64,000 nucleotides of DNA from positions 1 to 64,000 of IMG/VR virus record IMGVR_UViG_3300027749_000047, one strand, 5' to 3'. Below are positions 1,548 through 63,467 of the stretch, piece after piece (position 1 is the first letter of the stretch; each line of letters starts with the position of its first letter). The DNA comes from a virus. The notes under the pieces were generated by a model. It made no database searches and had not been told where the DNA came from. It worked only from the letters and a program-made list of their open reading frames with translations. A program made the translations under genes and the position numbers.

Positions 1548-4500
1548 GTGTTTAATGAAGATGTAACAGTTGATTTTAATGCCAATGTAGGCCCTTACAC
1601 GTCTTCTCTTGGTCAAGCTTTGGCTATGACTAATCAGTTTAGTGCTGCTAACGATATTGGCATTGCTAAACTTGGTAATCTTAATAAGATTTCGTTGGCT
1701 CTTGTTCAGTCAACGGCTATGTTTACTGGCGCTAATAAAATTGCTGTTCAGCAGGCTGCAGCGTATGAGCAAAAACTTTCTGGCATTAATACTATGGCTA
1801 AGATTGCCGGTAAGCAGTTTGATGATCTTGGCAAAGTAACTATGAAGTTTGCTCGCCAATTTCCTATTGGTATGGATAAAGCCATTGAAACTACTAAGGC
1901 TTTAGCAACTTCTGGTGTTGTGACCACTAAACAGGTTCAAAAACTCGGTACTGAGTTTATTAAACTTCAAGCTGCTTCGGGCGAGTGGGGTTCTGGCATG
2001 ACCCAGGACATGCTTCAGGTGACTCGTTCGTTTGGTAATTCTACTAATATGATTAAAGGTTTTAGTGATTCTTTAGTCACTGTTACTACTAAATATGGCG
2101 CTTCGGCTTCTTCTGTTTTGGCTTTTTCTAAAGCTATTGCACCTATTGCTTCTGTTGTAGGCATTGGTCAGGCTTCTGTGTTTGGTTTGTCTACGGCTAT
2201 GTCTCGCCTTGGCGAAGATGGTTATCGTTCTGCTAACGCATTTAACAAGGTCCTTTTGGATATGAACCGGTCTATTCGTACTGGTTCACCTGAAATTCGT
2301 GAGTATGCCAAAGTCTTAAACATGTCTTCAGATTCTTTAGGCAATTTGTTTAAGAGCGATCCTACTGAAATGATTTTGCGCTTTACTAGTGCTATTAATA
2401 AACAAGGCGCTCAGGCTGTCACTACGCTTGATAATTTGGGTCTTGATGGTGTTAATACTTTTAAGTCTTTGCAGGCTTTGTCTAAGACTGGTGATTTGCG
2501 TCAAATTGTTGGTGATGCTACTAGTGCTTATAATAATGGTTCTGCTAATGCTGGTGCACAGACTGCTTTGGGTGGCGTTAATGACCAGTTAACTAAAATG
2601 CAAGAAACTATGTCGCAGACTACTGCTGAGGCAGGTAAACCTTTCTTGTCATTTTTGGGTAGCGTTTTGGGTGTTTCTAATGGAATTGCTAGTGGCGTAC
2701 ACGGGCTTGTTTCAGCTCTTGCAGGCCTTGGACCTTTACTTCCTGTGTTGTCTACTTTATGGACTATTTTAAAAGGTATTGCTGTTATTCAATTGGGCCG
2801 TCTTGGTCTTAATATGTTTAAGAATTCTAATTTTGGACAACAATTTTTTGCTGGTCGAGCACAGGCTTTAAACGGTGAGGCTTTTGGACCTAATGCTTTA
2901 ACTACTGCTGGTGCGCGTGTGGGTCAGGGTTTTGGCACTATGTTTGGTGGTAAAGATGAGACTGGCGAACGTGTTAGCCGAATGAGTCGTTTAATGGGCA
3001 GCACTAAGTGGTTATCACAAGCGTATGTTAATGCTAACGCTAATCTTTACAATGCTGATCCTAGTAATTCACGTATGCGTACTGATGCGGGTATGGCTCG
3101 CGCTAATAACAAACTTCATTTACAAAACAATCTTCCATTGATGTCTGCTGCTGAACAGGAAGCACATTATGGTAAAGATGCTAACAATGTGATTCGCCCA
3201 GCCACTTTATCAACCATGCCAGCCGGCGGAGTTCCTGGCGGTCAATACGGTTGGCGTGAAATTTCTGCTGCCAACAAAATGATGTATCAAGATATTAAAG
3301 CTACTTCTGGAAGTTTGGGTGCGTTTCGTGCTGCTGCTGGATATACTGCTAAAGGTGTTGCTGAGTTAGGTAAGGCTACGTTTAAGAATGCTGGTGCTTA
3401 CTTGCGCCAAGGATCTATTACTGGGCTTGATGAGGCAGGCGGTACTATTCGCGGTGGTGCTCGTTTTGGCGCTTTAGGCAGCATGCTTTCGGGCATGGGT
3501 CCAATGCTTGGGATTATGGCCACTATGGCCGCTATTGGTTTCGTTAAAAATGCGCAAAAAATTAGCGCAGAGCGTATGGCTGGTACTGGTTTTGGCGATG
3601 CTTATTCTGTTTATAATAATTTTGCAACTAAAGCAAATTTGCCTACTCAAAACGGTACTCTTTCTACTGGTATTGATAGTACGATGGACTGGGCAACTTA
3701 TTACGCTAAGTCTGCAAAAACTGTTAGGCAAGCAATTACTTTAGGCCAAGACGTTAATTTAAACGCACTACGACCAAATTACAAAACTTCTGCAGACATC
3801 AATATTGATGGTGATAATAAAAATCCAAATGATTTAGCGGCTTATGTACGCTTAATGGCTGGACCTAGAGCAAACCCTGAAGTTATTAGTCGTTTAATGC
3901 AAGATTTAACTGCTAAAACTAAAGACACTAATTTAACTGCTCAAGTTGGCATAAAAGCTTTTGCTCCGTCGCAAGTTAATAATTCAACTTCTGGATTGTA
4001 TCAAAGTGCTTTTCAGGCTGCTGGCGATTCAATGGGGCATACTGACGAAGCAACTTGGCGACAATCTGCGTATGGTGGAACAATTGGTCAGTTAATTAGG
4101 CAAGAAGCTACTACAAATATTAACAATACTCTTTTAAAATTTGGTTCCGGTACTCAAAAAATGGCTACCTTGCAGCAGGCTGCACAAGTTTTGCGCGGTG
4201 CTAGAGAATATGGTGTAAAAAATGGTGGCCTTGGCAATAATGGTTACGTTGTTACGCAAGGTATGGAAGCACTAAAAATTGTTAGCGAATTGCTTGGAGT
4301 AAAATATAACACAAGCAATGTAACCAATGCATTAGGTATGCAGCGAACTCTTAATAATGCGCAAGGTAACGACCCACTAAAGTTCTTTTTTCAATATTCT
4401 CAAGGTGGTTTAGAAGGCGTAAAAAACAACGAATTTTATAAATATTACAAAACTTTGATCGCTAAAGGCGGTGGAGATTTTGAAAATCCTGTTTATAAAA

Positions 4501-7349
4501 AAGGTAAGCGTATAGTTTCGCCTGAAGAAAAGTATTCTAAAAAAGCCAATCAAGATATTGGTTCTGGCTTATTTGCTGCTGAGGATTACGCATGGTCAAA
4601 AAGTATGACTATTTTAGATATTTTTAGTAATCCAACAATGTTTAATGCCATTAAAGATAAAGTTGTAAAACTTGCTATTAATGCTTCTATTGCGCAAAAT
4701 GATGTTAGTGCGCAAAATGCTTTTTCTCAAGCTATTTCTACTACTGCTTTAAATAGCACAAAAAGTGGCATGGCTGCTGTTACTGAACTGTTACAGCAAT
4801 TAAAAAATCCTAATCTTGCAGCAAGTAGTGCACAGGCCTCAGCTATTCTTAACGCCTACAATATGACTGCTTCTGTTCGTTCTGTTGAGCAAGCTGGTCA
4901 GAGCGGTCTTTCAAATATTAACCAAAATATTAAAACAGGTGTTACCGCTGCTAACACTGTATTGCCTACTGGTGCTACACAAGAACAGCAAAGTGTTTTG
5001 GGGCAAGAAAGAGCAACTGGTCAGCAGGCTGTTTCTCAAATGATGTCTTTTGCTAAGCAAATTGCTAATTTGAATCATGAGATGGCTAAGGGTGCTGAGG
5101 ACATGGCTATCAATGTTACTCGTACTCAATTTAAGTTTAATCAAAGTATTTTGCGTGGTACTCAAGATTTTGCTAAAAGTTTTTATAATGTTTATGAGCG
5201 TGTTGGTGGTCAGCGTGTTGCTTCGACCGGTGCTTTGATTACTAATCTTAAAGAGCAAAGTACTCTTTTGAATCGTCAAATGAAAAATGTTACTAAGTTG
5301 AAAAAACTTGGTTTGTCTGATGATGCTATTCGTACTATGGATTTGATGAATCCTGCTAATGCTCAGCAAACGGATCAGCTTGTTAATGATATGACACGTA
5401 ATGTGTCTTTAATTAATCAAGCTAATAAAGAAGTCGCTAATCGTATGGATTTATCCGGTCAGCATGAGACTAGCCCAAATAATACGGCTTATAAACGCGC
5501 TAAAGAAGACTTTGATTTGCAAATGAAATATATGAGCGAGGATTTTGAAAAAGCGGCTAAGCGTGCTTATAACGATTTGTTTAATTTTGGGGAAAACATT
5601 TCGGTTGCTGGCAGTGGTGTAACAAACAAATTGGCTAAGGCACTTTCTGGCATGCCTGATGTTGCTGGTAAAGCCGCTAAAGCTGCTGGTCAAGCTATTT
5701 TAGACGGTTTACAAACATCACTTAAAGGTTTAACTGGCAATGAGCAATTCAGTTTAGTTAATGGGTTTTTATCTGCTCCTAGAAAAGCACCAAATACTCC
5801 AACTGCTCCTGGTTCTGGTGGAAGCGGTTCTGCTGGTTTAACTGGTGGTAGTGGTGGCGGTGGCGGTGGTGGTGCAAGCGGTGTTATGGGTGCACCGGGT
5901 AAAATTACTAATCGTTTACCAAAAAATACTGGTGTAAGCGGTAATGGAACTGCTGGCGATTATAAAGGCCAGATGGTTATGGATAAAGATGGTGTTTATC
6001 AAGTAAGTAATCCTATGAATAACGGTAAATATCAAAAAATTGTTAAAGATAATGGCAAGACTAAGCGTGGAAAATTTCTTGATGCTGTATTTAGTGAAAT
6101 TGGCCAAGACTATCGCCTTGGTGGCGGTCATGATTTAGATGATATCGGCGGATTTGATTGTTCTGGTCTTGTGGAGTTTGCAGCAAAGCATGCTGGAATA
6201 AATGCAGGTACAGGAACTGCAGCAACTTTGTATAATCAATACACCAAACATATTATGCAAAAAGATGCTATTGCCGGGGATTTAGTGTTTTATAACAATA
6301 ACCGTAGTCAAGCGGGTATGGATCACGTTGGTATTTATATTGGGCACGGAATGATGATTGATGCTCCTGCTCCGTACAAAAAAGTTCGAGCCGAACCTGT
6401 TGTTTTTTCTGGTTCTGGTAAACCATTTTTTGGTCGCTTAAATGGTTTACCTGTTGATGATTCTGATCTTGTTAAAGCTGCTACTGGTGGACATATTAAG
6501 GGTCCTGGTTCTAAGACTTCTGATTCTATTCCTGCTCGTCTTTCTGATGGTGAGTATGTTATTAAAGCGGATACTGTCGATAAGTACGGTGTAGATTTTT
6601 TCCACAATCTTAATGAGCAAAAGTTTAAAGATGGTGGCTCTGTAGGAAACTGGTGGGATAATGACAATAATCCTATTGGCAAGAATAGTTTAAAGAAACT
6701 GATTGCTAGGGCTGGTTTTAAAGGTCATGAAGCAATGATGGCTTGGGCAATTGCAATGGCGGAGTCTCATGGGTATACAAATCTTTTAAACAATACGGAT
6801 AGCACTGGTGATTTGTCTTATGGTCTATGGCAAATTAATATGATTCATAATCTGGGTCCTGAGCGACGTAAGAAGTATCATTTGTCTTCTAACAATGATT
6901 TATATGATCCTTTTACAAATGCAAAAATTGCTTATGATATTTCTAAGGGTGGTAAGTATTGGGCTGATTGGGGTTCTTACACTTTAGATCACCATTATTT
7001 AGATTTTTTAAATTACAAAAATGGTAATCCTGATAAAGCAGAAAAGTATAAGGATTTGAGCAGTAATGTTCCAATTATGACTGCTGGTCCCGCGCCAAAA
7101 GCCCATAATTGGTGGGATGATTGGATTCCTCATTTTAGTCGAGGTGGTTATGTAGGAAATTCTGATGCTGTTAACTCTCGTATGTCTAGATTTGCCACAA
7201 ATACTACTAACACTACAAGTCATAGCTATGATCACTCGACTCAAATTCATGGTCAGATTACTGTTCAGGCTAATGACCCTAATGAGTTTATGCGTAAGAT
7301 TAATGCTCAGCAACGTCGTCAGCGTTTATTATCACCGGTAGGTAACTAA
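1548..7349 (+). CDS. Tape measure protein with NlpC/P60 peptidase and lytic transglycosylase-like domains
   Basis: 1933 aa, helical N-terminal TMP region; GFDCSGLV...DHVGIYIG (NlpC/P60); AIAMAESHG...SYGLWQIN (SLT/lysozyme-like); DSIPARLSDGEYV motif. Confidence 0.93.
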   Translation: MFNEDVTVDFNANVGPYTSSLGQALAMTNQFSAANDIGIAKLGNLNKISLALVQSTAMFTGANKIAVQQAAAYEQKLSGINTMAKIAGKQFDDLGKVTMKFARQFPIGMDKAIETTKALATSGVVTTKQVQKLGTEFIKLQAASGEWGSGMTQDMLQVTRSFGNSTNMIKGFSDSLVTVTTKYGASASSVLAFSKAIAPIASVVGIGQASVFGLSTAMSRLGEDGYRSANAFNKVLLDMNRSIRTGSPEIREYAKVLNMSSDSLGNLFKSDPTEMILRFTSAINKQGAQAVTTLDNLGLDGVNTFKSLQALSKTGDLRQIVGDATSAYNNGSANAGAQTALGGVNDQLTKMQETMSQTTAEAGKPFLSFLGSVLGVSNGIASGVHGLVSALAGLGPLLPVLSTLWTILKGIAVIQLGRLGLNMFKNSNFGQQFFAGRAQALNGEAFGPNALTTAGARVGQGFGTMFGGKDETGERVSRMSRLMGSTKWLSQAYVNANANLYNADPSNSRMRTDAGMARANNKLHLQNNLPLMSAAEQEAHYGKDANNVIRPATLSTMPAGGVPGGQYGWREISAANKMMYQDIKATSGSLGAFRAAAGYTAKGVAELGKATFKNAGAYLRQGSITGLDEAGGTIRGGARFGALGSMLSGMGPMLGIMATMAAIGFVKNAQKISAERMAGTGFGDAYSVYNNFATKANLPTQNGTLSTGIDSTMDWATYYAKSAKTVRQAITLGQDVNLNALRPNYKTSADINIDGDNKNPNDLAAYVRLMAGPRANPEVISRLMQDLTAKTKDTNLTAQVGIKAFAPSQVNNSTSGLYQSAFQAAGDSMGHTDEATWRQSAYGGTIGQLIRQEATTNINNTLLKFGSGTQKMATLQQAAQVLRGAREYGVKNGGLGNNGYVVTQGMEALKIVSELLGVKYNTSNVTNALGMQRTLNNAQGNDPLKFFFQYSQGGLEGVKNNEFYKYYKTLIAKGGGDFENPVYKKGKRIVSPEEKYSKKANQDIGSGLFAAEDYAWSKSMTILDIFSNPTMFNAIKDKVVKLAINASIAQNDVSAQNAFSQAISTTALNSTKSGMAAVTELLQQLKNPNLAASSAQASAILNAYNMTASVRSVEQAGQSGLSNINQNIKTGVTAANTVLPTGATQEQQSVLGQERATGQQAVSQMMSFAKQIANLNHEMAKGAEDMAINVTRTQFKFNQSILRGTQDFAKSFYNVYERVGGQRVASTGALITNLKEQSTLLNRQMKNVTKLKKLGLSDDAIRTMDLMNPANAQQTDQLVNDMTRNVSLINQANKEVANRMDLSGQHETSPNNTAYKRAKEDFDLQMKYMSEDFEKAAKRAYNDLFNFGENISVAGSGVTNKLAKALSGMPDVAGKAAKAAGQAILDGLQTSLKGLTGNEQFSLVNGFLSAPRKAPNTPTAPGSGGSGSAGLTGGSGGGGGGGASGVMGAPGKITNRLPKNTGVSGNGTAGDYKGQMVMDKDGVYQVSNPMNNGKYQKIVKDNGKTKRGKFLDAVFSEIGQDYRLGGGHDLDDIGGFDCSGLVEFAAKHAGINAGTGTAATLYNQYTKHIMQKDAIAGDLVFYNNNRSQAGMDHVGIYIGHGMMIDAPAPYKKVRAEPVVFSGSGKPFFGRLNGLPVDDSDLVKAATGGHIKGPGSKTSDSIPARLSDGEYVIKADTVDKYGVDFFHNLNEQKFKDGGSVGNWWDNDNNPIGKNSLKKLIARAGFKGHEAMMAWAIAMAESHGYTNLLNNTDSTGDLSYGLWQINMIHNLGPERRKKYHLSSNNDLYDPFTNAKIAYDISKGGKYWADWGSYTLDHHYLDFLNYKNGNPDKAEKYKDLSSNVPIMTAGPAPKAHNWWDDWIPHFSRGGYVGNSDAVNSRMSRFATNTTNTTSHSYDHSTQIHGQITVQANDPNEFMRKINAQQRRQRLLSPVGN

Positions 7350-47450: not shown

Positions 47451-48103
47451 TGACTATTTCTCAGTCTCGTTATGGCAGTAATGCTGAAGTTGGTCGTGCG
47501 CCTAATCGTAAGCCTGTTAAGGATCAGCATCATTGGGGTGCTGCGGCTGGTTTAGGTGTGGCTGGCACTGGTCTTGGTGCTACTCGCGCTTCTAGTGTTT
47601 TGAGCAATAATGCTGGCGCTTCTAAAGGTAAGGCTAATCAATCTTTTGCCGGTGCTCGTATTAGTCGCGGTGATGCTAATCTTCAGCGTCAACTTCAGGC
47701 CAATGAGCAGGCTAAATTAACTAAATTGCGTGGCCGTACTAAAGGTCAGGCTATGTGGATTACTGATGGTCAGGGTAAGCGCATTAACATTCCTGCTGGT
47801 GCTTCTAATGGTGATATTAAAAACATCATGACGGGTGTTTCTCGTGATAGCGCTAGATATTCGCAAAGGGCTGGTATGCACGATAAAGCTGCGCAGGCTT
47901 CGCGCGACGAGGCTCGTAAGCATACAGAAAATTATGTTCGTATGAATCGTTATAGTAAGTTAGCGAGTCGTGGTGGCAAGGTGGCTATTGGTGCTGGTTT
48001 GTTGGGCGCGGCGGGCGCACTTGCTAATACTGAGCATGCTCGTGGTACAGTTGGCTACAAGCGACCTACACGCGCACAATTAAGGGGACGTAATGTCAGA
48101 TGA
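47450..48103 (+). CDS. Basic Gly/Ala-rich putative head protein
   Basis: 217 aa; SQSRYG motif shared with 45222 (NQSRFG). Confidence 0.6.
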   Translation: MTISQSRYGSNAEVGRAPNRKPVKDQHHWGAAAGLGVAGTGLGATRASSVLSNNAGASKGKANQSFAGARISRGDANLQRQLQANEQAKLTKLRGRTKGQAMWITDGQGKRINIPAGASNGDIKNIMTGVSRDSARYSQRAGMHDKAAQASRDEARKHTENYVRMNRYSKLASRGGKVAIGAGLLGAAGALANTEHARGTVGYKRPTRAQLRGRNVR

Positions 48104-49661
48104 TGTACGTTTGGCGGCTAGACAGACTGATGGGTTAAATGCGACACCTGCTGATATTCAGGCAATAGAGGAATTAAAAAATGCTTCTCCTTTTATGGAG
48201 CTTGGTACTACAGGTTTAAAGCGTGCCGGTGGTTACATTGATGAGCAGTTTCTTCCGCAGTTGCGTGGGCGTAAGGCTGTTCAAGTCTTTAAGGAAATGG
48301 CTGAGAATGACCCTTTAGTGGGTTCTTTGTGGTTCACTATTGATCGTCTTATTCGTAATGTTGAGTGGCGTGTTGAGCCTGCTAGTAAGTCTAAAGAAGA
48401 TACAGATAATGCCAAACTTGTAGAAACTTGTATGGATGACATGTCTCATACTTGGGATGACTTTATTTCTGAAGTTTTGTCTTGTGTCATTTATGGCTGG
48501 TCTTGGCATGAGATTGTTTATAAGCGTCGTATTGGTCCTTGGGAAAAAGATTCTTCTAAGCGTTCTAAGTACACTGATGGTCTTATTGGTTGGCGTAAGA
48601 TGCCTATTCGTGCGCAGGAAACTTTGTTGCGTTGGGCGTTTGATGATACGGGCGATGTGTCTGCAATGATTCAGTTGGCTCCGCCTCGTTATGAAACTAA
48701 AGTTTTACCTATTGAGCGTTCTTTGTTGTTTCGTTATCGTCATCAAAAAGGTAATCCTGAGGGTATGTCGATGCTTCGTCAGGCTTATCGTCCTTGGTAC
48801 ATGAAGAAGCGCCTTGAAGAGTATGAGGCTGTTGGTATTGAGCGTGACCTTGCTGGTTTACCTGTTGTTAAGGTTCCGGCAGAGTTTTTGCGTGCTAAGC
48901 CAGGTTCACAGCAAGCCCAAACTGTTGAAGCGTTTAAGCGCATGGTTAAGAGTGTGCGTCGCGATGAGCAAGAAGGCATTGTCTTTCCTATGGCTTACGA
49001 TCAAGATACTAAGCAACCTTTGTATTCTTTTGAACTCATGGGTGGCGGTGGTGCTCGTGCTTTTAATACTGATGCGATTATTCAGCGTTATGAGCAGCGT
49101 ATTCTTATGTCTGTGCTTGCTGACTTTATTATGGTCGGCCATGAGGGTAGCGGTTCTTACAGTTTGCATACCGATAAGACAGGTATCTTCCGTACATCTT
49201 TGAACTCTATTGCGGGTTCTATTGCGGATACGCTCAATCGGTATGCAATCCCTCGTTTGTTTTCTGTTAATGGTATGAAGCCTTCAGAGTTGCCTAAGAT
49301 TGTTCCTGGTGATGTTGATAGTCCAGATATTTCACAGTTGGCTCAGTTTATGTCTGCTATGTCTAGTACTGGTGTTACTTGGTTCCCAGATCCAACTATG
49401 GAAAACTTTATTCGCGATGCTGCGCGTTTGCCTAAACTTAATGATGAAGATGAAGAGCGTCGTCGTCAGATGCAGATGCGTACGGAAGCTACTCAGTATG
49501 CTCAGGCTAATATTGCGTATGTTCAGGCTAAGCAACAGTTGGCTCAAACTCTTATGGGTCAGATGCAGCAACCTGGTCAGCCGGGTCAACCTGCGCAACA
49601 AGATAGTCAACAAAATGCTGCGCAACAAGATAGTCAACAAAATCCTCAACAGGGGCAGTAA
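48093..49661 (+). CDS. Portal protein (DUF935-like)
   Basis: ELGTTGL, G.S.HEIVY, W.KM..R.Q, GNPEG.SMLR.AYRPWY.KK, GIERDLAGLP; Q-rich tail. Confidence 0.9.
   Translation: MSDDVRLAARQTDGLNATPADIQAIEELKNASPFMELGTTGLKRAGGYIDEQFLPQLRGRKAVQVFKEMAENDPLVGSLWFTIDRLIRNVEWRVEPASKSKEDTDNAKLVETCMDDMSHTWDDFISEVLSCVIYGWSWHEIVYKRRIGPWEKDSSKRSKYTDGLIGWRKMPIRAQETLLRWAFDDTGDVSAMIQLAPPRYETKVLPIERSLLFRYRHQKGNPEGMSMLRQAYRPWYMKKRLEEYEAVGIERDLAGLPVVKVPAEFLRAKPGSQQAQTVEAFKRMVKSVRRDEQEGIVFPMAYDQDTKQPLYSFELMGGGGARAFNTDAIIQRYEQRILMSVLADFIMVGHEGSGSYSLHTDKTGIFRTSLNSIAGSIADTLNRYAIPRLFSVNGMKPSELPKIVPGDVDSPDISQLAQFMSAMSSTGVTWFPDPTMENFIRDAARLPKLNDEDEERRRQMQMRTEATQYAQANIAYVQAKQQLAQTLMGQMQQPGQPGQPAQQDSQQNAAQQDSQQNPQQGQ
49591..49643 (+). 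repeat. 27-nt period tandem repeat in portal Q-rich tail
   Basis: CTGCGCAACAAGATAGTCAACAAAAT twice. Confidence 0.85.
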
Positions 49662-51107: not shown

Positions 51108-54100
51108 GTGTCATTGCTTGATGCGGTTCGTAAGGCTGTAGAGGAAGACCCTGAAGGTGGTTCTATTCTCATTGATGAGATTGTTTATTCTTTTTTGGCT
51201 GATGAGGCTGAGCAGATTCGTCCTGAAGTTCAGGAAATGTTATCTGAGTTTATGGCTGACCGTGTTGCTGTCGCTAAACGTGCGTTAGGTCGTGCTTATG
51301 TTGAAACTATGGCTAATGGTGAATACCCTGACCCTGAAGTTCAGAAGAATGCTGAGTGGATTGCTGGCATCGAGCGTTTTGTTGCTTCAGATATTTCTAA
51401 GGCTGATGATCGTCCTTTTGATGAGCGGTTGCATCCTCGTGGTAGCGGTGGTCGTTTTAGCACTAAAGCGCCTCATGCGGCTGAGGTAGCGGCTGGTGCT
51501 TATGTTGGTTATGCTGGCGCACAGCATCCTAAAAAGCATAGTGCTACTACTAAAACTCATGTAATGCCCGATGGTAGTGGTAAAAATGTTTATTCTGAGG
51601 GTATTGATGTAGATACTAAGAAACTTGTTGACCAGCATCAGTATCAATGGGATGCAGCTAATCAGCAGGCTAGTGATATTTTAAATAGTTTTGGTGGCGA
51701 TGCTAAAAATGTTAATCTACATATCACTGTTCAGAATAAACATAATGACAAAATGCGCGACATTATTGTCCCAGGTAGTGATGCTAAAGGTGGTTTGCCT
51801 GAAGATGCTGCTTGGTCATTAAATGATGATTACAAGTCTATGAGTGTTGAATCAGCAAAGTTAGATAGTCCTGATAAGCAAATTATGATTGATAGGCGCG
51901 TGGATGCCTACAATGTTATGGGTAATGCTGGTGGTCCTGCTATGGCAGAGTTAGGCGCTGTCGACCCTGCACGCTATTCTCAGTTACGCACTTCTATGGG
52001 CCGTAATTACATGCGCGATAACAAAAAGTCTAAAATGACTACGTTTTTTGACCGATTGCATGCTGGTGGTGGAGTTCTTCGAGAAGTCCCAGGTATGGAA
52101 AAGTATGGTCGTTTTGCACAGTTTGTTGGCGTTAATGGCCCAGAGGCTGAAGAAGCGCTTGGTCCTTATGCTAAACAAGCTGCGTATCGTTACCGCGGCA
52201 CTGAGAAAGAGCCAGATTTAGAAATAGTTACACAGTTCAATAGCACTACTATGAATGCTGTTAATGCTGTGGCTGTTAATCCTAATAATAAGTTGGCTAT
52301 GGATCATCTTGAAAATGAAATTTCTGGTCAGGGTGAGAAGGATGTAGTTGCTACTTCTGCTGTTTATGAAATGAATCACTTAAAGCGCACTCGTGGTGGT
52401 GAATACACTCCGGATGAATTAGCGCTTAATGTTCGTGCTGATGTGGCTACACGTCATTTGTTAAACACTTTACCAACTGACCCTTTTGTAGCTGATTTGT
52501 CACGCGCTGCAGGTAATGTTTTGCCTTCGCAAGGAATTATTATTGATGCTGATGGCGATGTTGTTTCGCAGTCTGTTGGTTTTGCGGATGACCACTATTT
52601 GCCGTTTGATCTTAAGAATCTTAAGTCTTTGCGTGGCGGTCAGTATGTTCGTACGCGCCAGCAAGGCGGTTTGACTGCTGAGGATGTTTACGCGTCTATT
52701 CGTACGGGTGCGCGTATGGCTACGGTTGTTTCATCTTCTGGTGTGTTTTCTTTAGAGTTTGACCCTAACTTCCGTGGTGCTCGCGCCAATTCTGATAAGG
52801 CTCGTCAGATGGTTGATCGTTATGTCAGCATTCTTGATGCAGTTCAAAATTCTAATCTTTACACTCAAGACATTGACCAGAAAGAAAAAGAGCGCTTAAA
52901 GGGTTTGGCTAACTCAATGGGTGCTACTGATGCAGAACGTAAGGATTTGTTTAATCATTATGTTGATCAAGCACGTAACGCTGGTGAGAATCTTAATGAA
53001 CAAGATTTACAGTTAATTCAAGAAGATGCTGTTAAACAGGTTGATAATGAAGGCTTTAAGTACAAGAATGAGCGTTACAATCGCCGTGTTAATGAAGTGT
53101 TTGATGAAATGGCTGAGCAAAAGCGTGCGCAACGCGTTTCGCGTCTAAATCTTAATTCAAAGGGTTATGATGCTGCGTTGCAGACTTTGCAGCAACAGTT
53201 CCCGTATTTTATTCGTTCTGTTAAGTATCAGCCTTTGACTGCTGATAAGAATGGCCAGCGCGGCTTTTTACAGTCTCTTGGTCAGTCTGGTGCTGCAGGT
53301 GCTCGTCAAAAGTTGTCTGCTAAAGACCAGGGTTATGTTAATGCTGGTGCTGGTGACCTTCGACCTAATGTTGGTTACCCAAAGCCTGCTGAAGAAAAGA
53401 TTGGTGCTGGCGCTACTAGCGAAACTAAACCAACTACTGGTGGTACTGAATCTAGTACTGCAGAGGCACCTAAGCCTAAGTCTGTTCCTAAGGCTAAATT
53501 CTTGGGTGATTTGGAAGTATTTACTGCTAGTGCCAATAAAGAAGCGGCGTCTGAAGTTGAAGAATTAGCATCTATTTTCCGTAGTCATGACCCAGGAATT
53601 CAAGGTGTTCCAGGTACTACTGAGTGGTCTGTAGCAAAAGGCGCTTTTGAAACTACTGGCGATAAACGTTTGGCTGCTAAGTATTTATTAGCTGCTTCAA
53701 ACAATGGCGAGCATGATGCTTTGGCTAAGGCTTACAAGTCAGACCCTGCTATTGTTGGTGCTGTTTTGTCAGATGAAAAAGCAGTTAAAGAAGCTCTTTC
53801 TGCTCTGTATGGTTCTGCTTGGCAAGGCGAGGCAGAAATTAGTTTTGGAATGTCACTTAAAGATTTGCAGGGAAATGTTCATTATGTGGCCGATAAAATT
53901 AACGAGGCTTTGGAATTAAAAACACCCTATGCCCCTGCATCTCATGGCCCTGCTGGTTTATTTTACACAGGCAATAAGCCTCAAGAAATGGCTGAGTTGG
54001 CTGCAGTTAACGATAAAGCAGGTCTCAAGAGCATGATTAATGCTAGCCCTGCTGTTGCCGAAATTGCTTCAGATCTTGATGGTTTAGATAATGCACAAAT

Positions 54101-54584
54101 GAGTGAACTTGTTGGCGAGCGTGTTGCTGTGCTTAAGAAAGCCAAGGATGCTCGTATTAGTGAATTGTTTAGCGCTGAGGCTGCTATTAATCCAGATGAT
54201 GCGCCCGCTAAGGCTTTATCAAAAGCAGATATTACTCCAGATGAGTGGAAAGCCGCTATGGGCTCTAGTGCTAGTTCACATTTTGGTACGTTCCAACAAT
54301 TCTTACCTGAAACCATTGATCAGCGTGCTCAGGCTACCCAGACTGCTTGGGGTGCTATTTACACGTCTAATTTGATGGATAAGTTGGAGGAGTTGAAAGC
54401 ATCTTCCGCTAAGGCAGGTGGTGTTGAGGCCCCAAAAGCGGAACCCCCAGTGGGGGAATTAGCGAAAAGCCAGCCGGTGTCCTCGTCCCGACGGGTGCAA
54501 GTCGCGAAGAACCATTGGCTAGCCCAAGAGGTAGCGGTGAGGCGCGAGGCGGGCCTACCTCTGGTGCCGACCCGCAAAAGGTAG
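51108..54584 (+). CDS. Large putative head/ejection protein
   Basis: 1158 aa; ISKA then FDERLHPRGSGGRF; central degenerate JAB-like segment. Confidence 0.7.
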   Translation: MSLLDAVRKAVEEDPEGGSILIDEIVYSFLADEAEQIRPEVQEMLSEFMADRVAVAKRALGRAYVETMANGEYPDPEVQKNAEWIAGIERFVASDISKADDRPFDERLHPRGSGGRFSTKAPHAAEVAAGAYVGYAGAQHPKKHSATTKTHVMPDGSGKNVYSEGIDVDTKKLVDQHQYQWDAANQQASDILNSFGGDAKNVNLHITVQNKHNDKMRDIIVPGSDAKGGLPEDAAWSLNDDYKSMSVESAKLDSPDKQIMIDRRVDAYNVMGNAGGPAMAELGAVDPARYSQLRTSMGRNYMRDNKKSKMTTFFDRLHAGGGVLREVPGMEKYGRFAQFVGVNGPEAEEALGPYAKQAAYRYRGTEKEPDLEIVTQFNSTTMNAVNAVAVNPNNKLAMDHLENEISGQGEKDVVATSAVYEMNHLKRTRGGEYTPDELALNVRADVATRHLLNTLPTDPFVADLSRAAGNVLPSQGIIIDADGDVVSQSVGFADDHYLPFDLKNLKSLRGGQYVRTRQQGGLTAEDVYASIRTGARMATVVSSSGVFSLEFDPNFRGARANSDKARQMVDRYVSILDAVQNSNLYTQDIDQKEKERLKGLANSMGATDAERKDLFNHYVDQARNAGENLNEQDLQLIQEDAVKQVDNEGFKYKNERYNRRVNEVFDEMAEQKRAQRVSRLNLNSKGYDAALQTLQQQFPYFIRSVKYQPLTADKNGQRGFLQSLGQSGAAGARQKLSAKDQGYVNAGAGDLRPNVGYPKPAEEKIGAGATSETKPTTGGTESSTAEAPKPKSVPKAKFLGDLEVFTASANKEAASEVEELASIFRSHDPGIQGVPGTTEWSVAKGAFETTGDKRLAAKYLLAASNNGEHDALAKAYKSDPAIVGAVLSDEKAVKEALSALYGSAWQGEAEISFGMSLKDLQGNVHYVADKINEALELKTPYAPASHGPAGLFYTGNKPQEMAELAAVNDKAGLKSMINASPAVAEIASDLDGLDNAQMSELVGERVAVLKKAKDARISELFSAEAAINPDDAPAKALSKADITPDEWKAAMGSSASSHFGTFQQFLPETIDQRAQATQTAWGAIYTSNLMDKLEELKASSAKAGGVEAPKAEPPVGELAKSQPVSSSRRVQVAKNHWLAQEVAVRREAGLPLVPTRKR
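54431..54456 (+). other. Candidate programmed -1 frameshift signal
   Basis: C CCA AAA at 54431-54437 in frame; -1 frame TGA at 54425-54427 just before; CCCCC-AGT-GGGGG hairpin 6 nt downstream. Confidence 0.75.
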
Positions 54585-55378
54585 AAGAAATTAGTGCTGA
54601 CCTTCATTCAATGATTGGTATGAATAGTGTCGCTAACGAAGTTGATAGTCTTGTTGCTACTGGTTTAATTAACCAAAAGCGTGAAGATGCTGGTTTGCCT
54701 GTTTCTCGTAATGCTAAGCATTTGGTGTTTGTTGGCGAGCCTGGTACTGGTAAAACTACGGTTGCTAAGAAATTGGCTAAGTTGTATAACGCTGCTGGTC
54801 TTTTGCCTAGTAGTAAGGTTGTTGAAACTGACCGTAGTAAGTTGGTTGGGCAGTATGGCAATAACATTTCTGATCGTGTGCGTCAAGAGTTTGAGAAGGC
54901 TCGTGGTGGTGTTTTGTTTGTTGATGAGGCTTACACTCTTGCGGATGACCAGTTTGGTAAAGAAGCTGCTACTCAGTTGATGAAAATGATGGAAGAGCAT
55001 AAAGACGATACCGTGGTTATTGTTGCTGGTTATCCGGGTGAAATGGATAAGTTTATGAGTCTTAATCCTGGCATGAAGTCGCGTTTCTCTAAAACAGTTA
55101 ATTTCCCTAATTATTCACATAAAGAACAAGTTCAAATTCTTGAGCAACGTATGGCTAAACATAAAGATGTTGTTGATAGTCCTAAGACCGCTAAGGCGCT
55201 AAATAATGCTGTTCGTGTTGCTACTGCTGAGGGTGGCAATGGTCGCGCTATGGAACGTCTACATGCTAAGTTGGAAGAAAGCCGTAATGTGCGTTTGAGT
55301 CGCATGCCTGATGTATCTGAGGAAGATTTGTCAGTATTTACTATTGATGATGTAAACTCGGCTATTGCTTCTAATTGA
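54437..55378 (+). CDS. AAA+ ATPase, CbbX/SpoVK/EccA family (probably translated as frameshift fusion)
   Basis: GEPGTGKT, VLFVDEAY, VIVAGY, NPGMKSRF, GNGR; no convincing RBS; frame open back to slippery site. Confidence 0.88.
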   Translation, partial: SGTPSGGISEKPAGVLVPTGASREEPLASPRGSGEARGGPTSGADPQKVEEISADLHSMIGMNSVANEVDSLVATGLINQKREDAGLPVSRNAKHLVFVGEPGTGKTTVAKKLAKLYNAAGLLPSSKVVETDRSKLVGQYGNNISDRVRQEFEKARGGVLFVDEAYTLADDQFGKEAATQLMKMMEEHKDDTVVIVAGYPGEMDKFMSLNPGMKSRFSKTVNFPNYSHKEQVQILEQRMAKHKDVVDSPKTAKALNNAVRVATAEGGNGRAMERLHAKLEESRNVRLSRMPDVSEEDLSVFTIDDVNSAIASN

Positions 55379-57921: not shown

Positions 57922-58635
57922 ATGGATTCGTTAGAGATTGTTAAGTCGCTTCATAAGGTTGACCCAGGCTTTGTTGACTTGTGTAAAACACTATTTGGCG
58001 ATGCTATTTACCCTGAGGTTATTTGGGAATATTTGTATACCCCTGAGGGTATTTCTAAGATGGGTCCTGATCCGTCAGAGTTGAATACTTCTTCTAGCAA
58101 TAAGCGTGGTCGTTTGGTTCCACAAGAGCGTAATCCTCAGGTTCCTCGAGTTAAGGTACTGGCTAAGCATTCTCATAAAGGCGAACAAGTCGATAATACT
58201 GATGCTATGAGTAAGTCTGATGATGATTTTGACATTACTTGGTCTGGTGAGTTTGCTAAAGCTGATGAGGATAAGCGTCAGGTTTTTGGCTGGGCTTCTA
58301 TTGTTGAGGTTGATGGCACTCCGGTTGTTGATCGTCAGGGTGATTGGATTACTCCTGAAGAGATTGAAAAGGCTGCTTATCAGTATGTTTTGAATTCTCG
58401 TAAAGCTGGGCATCAGCATAAGCGTGATGGTGATCAGCCTTTTCATGCAGGTGACATGATTGAGTCTTTTGTTATGACTCCTGAAAAGGTTGAAAAGATG
58501 GGTCTTCCTGACGATACGCCTATTGGCTGGTGGGTTGGTTACAAGATTCATGATGAGGATGCTTGGCAGAAGGTTAAGAAAGGCGAAGTTACTGGCTTTT
58601 CTATTCATGGTCGCGGTAAGCGCAAAGAAGTCTAG
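57922..58635 (+). CDS. Prohead serine protease, XkdF-like
   Basis: RQVFGWAS...DRQGD.I..EEIEKAAY...GHQH...IESF...WWVGYKI.DEDAW.KVKKGE.TGFSIHG. Confidence 0.88.
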   Translation: MDSLEIVKSLHKVDPGFVDLCKTLFGDAIYPEVIWEYLYTPEGISKMGPDPSELNTSSSNKRGRLVPQERNPQVPRVKVLAKHSHKGEQVDNTDAMSKSDDDFDITWSGEFAKADEDKRQVFGWASIVEVDGTPVVDRQGDWITPEEIEKAAYQYVLNSRKAGHQHKRDGDQPFHAGDMIESFVMTPEKVEKMGLPDDTPIGWWVGYKIHDEDAWQKVKKGEVTGFSIHGRGKRKEV

Positions 58636-62459: not shown

Positions 62460-63467
62460 ATGCCAAGTCCATCCCAGTCCGATCTGCATGTAAATGTGCC
62501 GTTGACCAATGTGTCGATTGCCTACATGCAGTCTGCAGATGCATACATTGCTGACAAGGTATTTCCTAAAGTACCGGTCAAAAAGCAATCAGACCTTTAT
62601 TGGAAGTACAGCAAGAGCGATTGGCGTCGTACTGACGTTGCTCGCCGTGCGCCTTCTACAGAGTCTCCAGGCGTTGGTTGGAACACAACCACCGACCAGT
62701 ACTTTGCTCACGTCTACGCCGTGCACAAGGACATTGACGATCAGTTACGCGCCAATGCTGATAGCAACTTCGTACTAGACCGTGACAGCACCGAATTCAT
62801 CACAAACCAACTTTTGTTGAAGCGTGACGTTGACTGGGCTGCTAAGTACTTCACCACTGGTATTTGGGACAATGACCTTACTGTTGGTGCTTCTGCTAAC
62901 GCTAATGGTTTCACTGCTCCTGCCGCTAAGTGGTCAGATGCTGGCTCAGACCCAATTGGCGACGTTGCTCGTGCGGTTATTTCTTTCCGCAAGAACACCG
63001 GTTTTGCTCCAAACATCATGGTTCTTGGTGCCGATGTTATGACTGCCCTAAAGCAGCATCCAGATATCATTGACCGTATCAAGTACACTCAGCGCGGTAT
63101 CGTGACTGAAGACTTGATTGCTACAATGTTTGGCGTTAACGAACTGTACACATCGTACGCTTCACAGTCAACTGGTCCACAGATTCCAGATGCTAAGACT
63201 CAGGATGCTGCTGCTTCATACAGCTTCATCAATGATTCTAAGTCTGCTCTGTTGTGCTACGCGCCTTCAGCACCTAGCTTGATGACTCCATCAGCTGGTT
63301 ACACCTTCACTTGGAATGGCTACCTTGGTGGTAATTCTGAAGGTATCAAGATCAAGCGTTTCCGTATGGAACACATTGCATCAGATCGTATCGAAGCAGA
63401 AATGACTTACGATATGAAGACTGTTGCTACTGACCTTGGTGCATTCTTCACAAGCGTGGTTGCATAA
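62460..63467 (+). CDS. Major capsid protein
   Basis: HVNVPLTNVSIAY...IAD.VFP.VPV.KQSD.Y...DPIGD...PNIMVLG...L..HPDIIDRIKY. Confidence 0.93.
   Translation: MPSPSQSDLHVNVPLTNVSIAYMQSADAYIADKVFPKVPVKKQSDLYWKYSKSDWRRTDVARRAPSTESPGVGWNTTTDQYFAHVYAVHKDIDDQLRANADSNFVLDRDSTEFITNQLLLKRDVDWAAKYFTTGIWDNDLTVGASANANGFTAPAAKWSDAGSDPIGDVARAVISFRKNTGFAPNIMVLGADVMTALKQHPDIIDRIKYTQRGIVTEDLIATMFGVNELYTSYASQSTGPQIPDAKTQDAAASYSFINDSKSALLCYAPSAPSLMTPSAGYTFTWNGYLGGNSEGIKIKRFRMEHIASDRIEAEMTYDMKTVATDLGAFFTSVVA

Follow-up and report, generated by a model that had tools for sequence, protein, structure and literature searches.

An uncultured freshwater phage very probably uses a programmed -1 ribosomal frameshift, with a three-part signal of the kind known from bacteria, to fuse a protein of 1158 amino acids (aa), here called the big protein or carrier, to an AAA+ ATPase of the CbbX/EccA type that is encoded in the -1 frame. 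The three parts of the signal are a Shine-Dalgarno (SD)-like element, a slippery heptamer, and a downstream hairpin. The DNA analysed, referred to as the window, is the stretch of 64,000 nucleotides (nt) at positions 1 to 64,000 of the IMG/VR record IMGVR_UViG_3300027749_000047, and it represents part of a siphovirus-like genome. Coordinates are those of the window unless a relative or the whole record is named, and all elements of the frameshift region lie on the + strand. A fusion of the two proteins by programmed frameshifting had been proposed in a preliminary description of this DNA; comparison of 26 loci that carry the ATPase supports this proposal.

The frameshift site and its predicted products

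The big protein, a head-module protein, is encoded at 51108-54584 in the list of open reading frames (ORFs). Its frame, designated the 0 frame, ends with a TAG stop codon at 54582-54584. Four elements precede this stop, in the order in which a ribosome would encounter them. The first is the SD-like element, AAGGCAGGTGGTG, at 54411-54423, whose core, AGGTGGTG, is present at 54416-54423; its duplex with the anti-SD sequence of the ribosome (-8.8 to -9.5 kcal/mol) is the strongest of its own gene. The second is a TGA stop codon of the -1 frame (54425-54427), which is located directly 5' of the slip site and closes the -1 frame upstream. The third is the slippery heptamer C CCA AAA (54431-54437), which has the form X XXY YYZ in the 0 frame, lies 7 nt downstream of the SD-like element, and is followed by a G, so that the 0-frame reading at the slip site is GCC CCA AAA GCG. 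The fourth, after a spacer of 6 nt, is a GC hairpin, CCCCC-AGU-GGGGG (54444-54456; -8.9 kcal/mol). Downstream of the TGA, the -1 frame is open from 54428 to 55378 (316 codons), extending through the overlap into the ATPase. The GC content of positions 54400-54599 is 0.59-0.63, compared with 0.39-0.46 on the flanks. The heptamer in the frame of the 1158-aa gene, the -1 stop followed by a frame open into the ATPase, the GC hairpin 6 nt beyond the heptamer, and the raised GC content of the dual-coding stretch had all been noted in the preliminary description, and each is found in the sequence as it had been placed there.

From these elements the following series of events can be proposed. A ribosome translating the gene would meet the SD-like core, which is able to pair with 16S rRNA, then the heptamer 7 nt further on, and then the hairpin 6 nt beyond that. 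A fraction of the ribosomes would slip back by one base, with tRNA-Pro exchanging CCA for CCC while tRNA-Lys meets AAA again. After the shift, these ribosomes would read a flexible linker of about 46 aa containing the sequence LVPTG, followed by the complete ATPase, and would generate a fusion protein of 1423 aa (1110 aa from the 0 frame plus 313 aa from the -1 frame). Ribosomes that do not slip would terminate 48 codons on, yielding the 1158-aa form with its own conserved C-terminal tail. The sizes of 1158 and about 1423 aa that had been given earlier for the two products thus agree with those obtained here, as does the observation that LAKS and VAKN motifs belong to the unshifted tail: both are present in the 0-frame tail and missing from the -1 frame. 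The predicted junction of the shifted product reads EAPK-SGTPSGGISEK, where the hyphen marks the change of frame. Predicted peptides from the -1 frame of the overlap are SGTPSGGISEK and PAGVLVPTGASR, and the predicted GluC peptide across the junction is APKSGTPSGGISE. RNA evidence was sought among public runs, and no run with RNA of this phage is listed.

Heptamers of the V_VV.A_AA.R class, which includes C_CC.A_AA.A, are among the most efficient in E. coli (PMC4066793). A change of frame might also occur at the level of the RNA, through slipping of RNA polymerase on an A run, and the site does contain a short run of this kind (AAAA). However, four A's are far below the homopolymer lengths known for transcriptional slippage (compare the remark on AAAAAAA/UUUUUUU in PMC4066793). 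In addition, what is conserved is a whole heptamer, X XXY YYZ in the correct frame, flanked by an SD-like element and by a hairpin at distances that suit a ribosome; each of these is a feature of translation. Slipping of the polymerase is an extremely unlikely source of the fusion.

Conservation of the signal and of both reading frames

The sequence of the window alone is insufficient to exceed chance, and the significance of the site lies at the level of the family. Four related loci were taken by exact protein match, and 79 more were obtained from IMG/VR by an alignment-based scan. The ATPase-bearing set among them comprises 26 loci, which represent 22 lineages after the removal of near duplicates. 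Across this set, identity ranges from 31 to 84% for the big protein and from 29 to 89% for the ATPase, and the GC content of the genes ranges from 44 to 72%. In all 26 loci the ATPase is in the -1 frame, which overlaps the end of the 0 frame by 109-529 nt, and in all 26 the sequence NNC CCA AAA G is present in the 0 frame within the overlap, 93-207 nt before the 0-frame stop. The per-locus probability of finding the heptamer by chance is 0.0001-0.05. The residue that precedes the Pro varies (A, G, S, V, P, F, L, or D), and the third base of its codon is always C. In members of high GC content, CCA accounts for 2-15% of Pro codons and AAA for 2-16% of Lys codons, and still these two codons are always used. 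The use of rare codons, together with a variable preceding residue whose codon always ends in C, indicates that selection acts on the nucleotides rather than on the dipeptide Pro-Lys. In every one of these loci, and also in six further loci, described below, that carry the site without the ATPase, the heptamer is followed by a G. Because of this invariant G, the -1 reading starts with an AGN codon (Ser or Arg) in all of them.

The elements around the heptamer are conserved in kind and position. An SD-like sequence (GGTGGTG, GGAGG, or GGGGG) is found 3-20 nt 5' of the heptamer in 26/26 loci; the anti-SD duplexes have energies between -6 and -12.6 kcal/mol, and their median rank is 1% when every segment of the same gene is ranked. 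On the 3' side, a hairpin begins 3-10 nt after the heptamer in each lineage (median, -14.9 kcal/mol), and the stem sequences are unrelated to one another. The minimum free energy of the 40 nt downstream has a median rank of 1.6% within its own gene and falls in the top 10% in 19 of the 22 lineages. A stop codon of the -1 frame is present 0-12 nt 5' of the heptamer in 17 of the 26 loci, often as the TGA inside an SD-like GGTGA, and in these 17 loci the -1 frame is therefore not enterable from further 5'. The preliminary description had suggested that conservation of the heptamer, the -1 frame, and the hairpin be checked in homologous loci; all three are kept throughout the ATPase-bearing set.

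A broken frame can also be an artefact or a recent lesion, the result of a sequencing or assembly indel, or of a pseudogenising mutation, in a gene that had been an in-frame fusion. The assembly in question is in fact imperfect. The public record of 135,953 bp consists of two related genomes of ~68 kb placed head to tail (record positions 1-68175 and 68176-135953), which are 69-94% identical when compared block by block. The two strains are found together in two freshwater metagenome runs, and the 136-kb record is probably a mis-join of the two strains, not the genome of a 136-kb phage. The Logan unitigs of the two runs that hold both strains break exactly at the 31-mer that the strains share, at 54412-54442. 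However, the second copy of the frameshift site (record positions 121755-122155) matches the first in all 31 nt surrounding the slip site, a third variant, which comes from a different lake, has an unbroken sequence there, and the heptamer is unchanged and free of indels in contigs from three samples (freshwater or lake). The same frame relation is seen in 26 independently assembled loci of differing samples and GC content, there is coding constraint in both frames of the overlap, as described next, and no in-frame version is present among ~120 homologues of the big protein, all of which are 1225 aa or shorter. The probability that the broken frame is an artefact or a lesion is close to negligible.

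In the overlap, the -1 frame encodes the linker of ~46 aa (54437-54574), which is rich in G, P, S, A, and E and overlaps the 0-frame tail. Linkers of the family are 38-67 aa in length and are rich in the same residues. The linker of the window contains the motif G-V-L-V-P-T-G, with LVPTG at 54482-54496, about 90 nt upstream of the 0-frame stop, and G-x-L-[V/A]-P-T-G or a close variant (for example, LFETG) is present in the linkers of 15 of the 22 lineages. High-GC relatives have LAPTG in place of LVPTG. Among 19 distinct copies of the motif block, the nucleotide entropy is 1.46 bits at the third positions of the -1 codons, versus 0.64 bits at each of positions 1 and 2, and the 0-frame reading of the block varies freely (SSRQV, WSQQD, LSPRV, and others). 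Three loci (L003, L009, and L011) contain the motif twice; the two copies differ mainly at -1 third positions, leaving the LVPTG core unchanged. Such third-position-biased variation indicates that the -1 frame is translated in the overlap. In the window and in L002, L003, L006, L007, and L009-L011, the opening of the -1 frame lies at most 6 nt 5' of the heptamer, and no ATG, GTG, or TTG is present in this frame 5' of the motif (in L003, this is true of one motif copy). Thus, in those loci, only ribosomes shifting at the heptamer can translate the motif. LVPTG may be a processing or docking site. Its candidacy as a general protease site was considered and dropped; within the long ORFs of the record it is found nowhere else, save for one weak match, AAPTG, to a loose form of the pattern.

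The other frame of the overlap specifies the C-terminal tail of the unshifted product (54489-54569), which has the consensus RVxVLSKxHPLSxxVxxRxxxGLPLVP and which would be replaced by the linker and the ATPase upon a shift. The HPLS and GLP columns of this tail show the codon pattern of the 0 frame. Since the 0-frame tail and the -1 motif are each conserved as protein, the overlap is truly dual-coding. In low-GC members the raised GC content of the overlap is plausibly due to the presence of two stop-free frames, a G/P/A-rich linker, and a GC hairpin. A role of the tail as a dedicated handle for the ATPase, similar to the tail threading of CbbX, was also considered, and is weakened by three relatives without the ATPase (L033, L046, and L050) that keep a similar tail. 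By comparison of the sequences, three things are established: the signal, the relation between the frames, and selection for protein coding in each of them. The efficiency of the shift and a fixed minority of ATPase-bearing copies are, in contrast, inferred.

The ATPase and its carrier

The ATPase is encoded in the -1 frame at 54593-55378, ending with the TGA stop codon at 55376-55378. Judged by its matches, it is a complete, classic AAA+ module of the CbbX/SpoVK/EccA clade. It matches PF00004 (2e-17) and, in the lid, weakly matches AAA_lid_6 (PF17866; 18.9 bits vs a cut-off of 24.3). Among the NCBIfam models, it matches TIGR02881 (SpoVK; 4e-64, 216 bits vs an equivalog cut-off of 423), TIGR03922 (EccA; 1e-60, 206 bits vs 467), and TIGR02880 (CbbX; 1e-45, 156 bits vs 459). 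These scores are well below all three equivalog cut-offs, which argues for a relative of the family and not an orthologue. The matches to individual sequences are 1e-39 for EccA1 and 4e-36 for CbbX. As in CbbX (the activase of red-type Rubisco), EccA (of type VII secretion), and SpoVK, the conserved elements can be aligned: a Walker A motif (GEPGTGKT), the stretch LVGQYG (vs LVGQYIG in CbbX), a Walker B motif (VLFVDEAY), and the arginine of SRF. The LVGQYG stretch is presumably the pore-loop region. Unlike these three proteins, the phage ATPase falls below the equivalog cut-offs, has no tetratricopeptide repeat or other N-terminal domain of its own, and is predicted to be expressed as a frameshift extension. 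Searches of cultured phage records with the ATPase returned only distant SpoVK-like ATPases of unrelated phages. A scan of viral contigs with the ATPase as a single protein found no relative; the alignment-based scan described above succeeded.

The preliminary description had found no clear ribosome-binding site for the ATPase, and the anti-SD energies of the candidate starts bear this out: -1.0 kcal/mol for TTG 54515, +0.7 kcal/mol for ATG 54611, and +0.6 kcal/mol for ATG 54620. At 20 of the 25 gene starts checked in the window, the corresponding energies are -4 to -9 kcal/mol. Without a ribosome-binding site, the ATPase would be made only, or almost only, as the fusion. Gene callers annotate the relatives otherwise. 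In their annotation the ATPase is an ordinary separate gene, whose start in the window would be ATG 54611 or ATG 54620, used perhaps by ribosomes that terminate at the TAG (54582) and then reinitiate, and the heptamer and the upstream -1 frame would be incidental. This arrangement is consistent with the ATG that most loci have at the corresponding position (q13 or q16) and with a distance of only 27 nt between the 0-frame stop and the ATG. However, these ATGs lack an SD sequence and fall inside the conserved N-terminal helix; the match to the SpoVK model begins at 54593, upstream of the first ATG. In addition, L006 has no start codon of any kind from the heptamer to 22 codons into the domain, and the start assigned to it by the gene caller removes the conserved N-terminal helix. 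Over the same interval, L015, L017, and L027 have no ATG. The ATPase has no conserved independent start across the homologous loci; the combination of such a start with a lost slippery site would, in the preliminary description, have counted against the fusion. A separate gene also leaves unexplained the invariant heptamer at synonymous sites, the universal -1 relation, and the protein-level selection that acts on the -1 frame at a point 90 nt ahead of the end of the 0 frame, and we consider it very unlikely.

Homologues of the carrier, 1100-1225 aa long, number more than 120 and are encoded on contigs of uncultured phages; these contigs reach ~98 kb, and many are ~66-70 kb. The 1158-aa protein has no match in Pfam, PHROG, NCBIfam, PDB sequence profiles, or the ESM Atlas. 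Nucleotide and protein searches of cultured phage records with the big gene gave no relative, and a scan of genome contigs for relatives gave only two contigs of metagenome-assembled genomes (MAGs). In the full-length AlphaFold2 (AF2) model, which has a predicted local distance difference test score (pLDDT) of 74, the Pro-Lys of the slip site (residues 1109-1110) lies within a disordered stretch, residues 1104-1132, that follows the last long helix. In this model the stretch would be a sensible branch point for two different C-termini. The central domain (residues 309-746; window 52032-53345), the most conserved part of the protein, has 44 invariant positions in 61 sequences, with the motifs AYRYRGTE, DDHYLPF, GGQYVRTR, and GGLTxED. 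The model of this domain is a confident one (pLDDT of 90.9), and it has no match above noise in the PDB, the best having a Z score of 5.4. For the full and the central-domain models, Foldseek and VIA-align gave as the best, sub-threshold fold match a faint deaminase/JAB-like alpha/beta core (Z 4.5-5.2), and Foldseek also gave weak, partial matches to proteins annotated as 'minor capsid protein'. The central domain is common to many phages that have neither the ATPase nor the frameshift site.

The position of the two genes suggests where their products act. The window encodes a tape-measure protein with lysozyme and NlpC/P60 domains (1548-7349), a Mu-type portal (48093-49661), an XkdF-type prohead protease (57922-58635), and a capsid-E-like protein (62460-63467). 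The interval from the portal to the protease, all on the + strand, contains an 85-aa ORF, a 393-aa ORF, the 1158-aa gene, the ATPase ORF, and an 831-aa ORF. The order portal, big protein, ATPase, XkdF-type protease, and capsid-E-like protein, which relatives keep, is that of a head-morphogenesis module. Across relatives, the gene that follows the 85-aa ORF and precedes the big protein specifies 381-694 aa, and in L003 (L003:1147-2991) it carries a ParB_N domain, as is usual for the packaged, 'polyvalent' proteins that phage head modules encode. Given this setting, the big protein is a candidate component of the head (virion), and the shared body of 1110 residues would take the ATPase copies wherever the big protein goes, probably to the procapsid or the assembling head. 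There, or after ejection, the ATPase may serve as a protein remodeller. A role as an assembly chaperone outside the particle is equally compatible with the data.

Several points weigh against the frameshift fusion or against its placement in the particle. The hairpin of the window, taken alone, has a stem of 5 bp and a z score of -1.2, which is within chance. The support for recoding consists of the comparison of sequences from uncultured phages. The assignment of the big protein to the head is drawn from gene order only, and no convincing fold match accompanies it. Relatives with an in-frame fusion, which the preliminary description had proposed to look for, were sought with the big protein as query among homologues of near length, and none longer than 1225 aa was found among ~120, whereas a natural fusion would have been direct evidence that the joined protein functions; a search for longer proteins and a phmmer search of all libraries with the -1 ORF were swamped by bacterial proteins with multiple AAA repeats and are uninformative about fusions. 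Finally, some free ATPase may arise by re-initiation at the in-frame ATG 54611, which is kept in most near relatives.

Exchangeable payloads and relation to known frameshifts

The SD-like element, the heptamer with its following G, and a -1 linker rich in G, P, and A form a cassette, whose distribution was followed into more distant relatives. This distant set consists of 44 loci in which nothing but the central domain of the big protein is shared and no ATPase lies downstream. Among these, 37 lack any X XXY YYZ heptamer in frame within the final 400 nt of the gene, and in two the only heptamers are non-matching ones, whose -1 ORFs are 0-4 aa long. The remaining five (L031, L033, L034, L046, and L050) carry the cassette. 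In L031 (5609-6190), L033 (6581-7225), and L034 (6014-6916) the site reads C CCA AAA G, and in L046 (5705-6298) it reads G GGA AAA; in these four loci it is followed by a -1 linker rich in G, P, and A and by a domain other than the ATPase, 191-298 aa in length. A further locus, L086 (5054-5590), on a contig binned with a Microlunatus MAG, has GGCGGTGA, C CCA AAA G, and RLVPTGRR, followed by a non-ATPase payload of 176 aa. Thus, LVPTG travels with the cassette rather than with the ATPase. The non-ATPase payloads match no significant Pfam family (one sub-threshold match to Abi_C has an E value of 0.017), and they have no relative in this genome. The presence of the cassette with such payloads suggests that it is more widespread, and probably older, than its association with the ATPase and that the payload is exchangeable.

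In the fifth distant locus, L050 (6788-6976), the upstream context is the same as that of the window, yet the -1 extension is only 60 aa. A payload domain is therefore not always needed, as would be expected if the cassette were a conserved pause or regulatory site that tunes the yield or the folding of the big protein, with a fusion that has no function. This would not account for a -1 frame that, in the 26 ATPase-bearing loci, runs stop-free through the linker into a complete ATPase with no other route of expression, nor for the selection on the linker motif in the -1 frame. A pause site with a functionless fusion is very unlikely. In a wider reading, which we offer as a tentative and rather doubtful one, a large group of environmental siphophages might share a portable cassette, made up of the SD-like element, the site C CCA AAA G, the hairpin, and a linker with LVPTG, that hangs interchangeable payloads on a conserved head-internal carrier. 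The payload would be the AAA+ ATPase in this clade, an unrelated domain of about 130-250 aa in L031, L033, L034, L046, and L086, and no more than a short alternative tail in L050. A fixed minority of the carrier would bring an enzyme into the capsid and might even bring it into the host, so that these tailed dsDNA phages would follow a Gag-Pol strategy, with LVPTG as the site of processing or docking.

The architecture of the signal resembles that of E. coli dnaX (tau/gamma) and of IS911/IS3 OrfAB, in which an SD-like sequence lies a few nt upstream of an X XXA AAR heptamer and a stem-loop is located 5-8 nt downstream. The frameshifts of dnaX and IS911/IS3 are reviewed in PMC5009743, and rules for the motifs are given in PMC4066793. 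Unlike these systems, the site of the window is located in a phage head module, has the heptamer C CCA AAA and not A AAA AAG, and has a gap of 7 nt between the SD-like element and the heptamer. Furthermore, the shift in dnaX leads to a shorter product, whereas the shift in the window would append a whole enzyme domain. A second resemblance is to the G/GT tail chaperone of phage lambda, where a -1 shift near the 3' end of a morphogenesis gene also gives a minority product with a C-terminal extension. In contrast to G/GT, the site described here belongs to the head module, the extension is a 267-aa AAA+ ATPase and not a tail-binding T domain, and there are explicit stimulators, both SD-like and hairpin. 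A canonical tail-chaperone frameshift is also seen elsewhere in the window, 5' of the tape-measure gene: the heptamer C CCU UUC is present at 1183-1189 within a gene at 755-1204, and the -1 frame extends from 1171 to 1545. As in retroviral and totiviral Gag-Pol, T7 10A/10B, and A2 gp5A/5B (PMC5009743), a structural or assembly protein would be extended in a fixed minority of copies. In the case of Gag-Pol, the frameshift carries an enzyme into the particle (PMC5009743). Unlike the capsid extensions of T7 gene 10 and A2 gp5, the carrier is not the major capsid protein.

The phage frameshifts listed in the reviews and tools consulted are those of tail chaperones, of the capsid proteins of T7, T3, and A2, and of PSA, with MuF-like/ADP-ribosyltransferase pairs as candidates. 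Programmed frameshifts in tailed phages are textbook knowledge for tail chaperones and for a few capsid decorations. We know of no report of a tailed phage in which a frameshift appends an ATPase. Those reviews and tools list none, and a literature search found no description of this frameshift site. The mechanism is a known one, and the gene pair and the modular payload appear to be new. The site differs from the textbook phage cases in that the frameshift would be the only route of expression for an entire AAA+ motor, in that its signal is kept from 44 to 72% GC, and in that its payloads vary.

The locus has consequences for annotation, since gene callers split it and give the ATPase a truncated start without an SD sequence. 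For research on recoding, it offers a natural dnaX-like signal with a different heptamer, and its overlap is a clean example of dual coding, in which each frame has a conserved peptide motif of its own. For the biology of these phages, the fusion is a testable candidate for the stoichiometric delivery of an enzyme by way of a head-module carrier.

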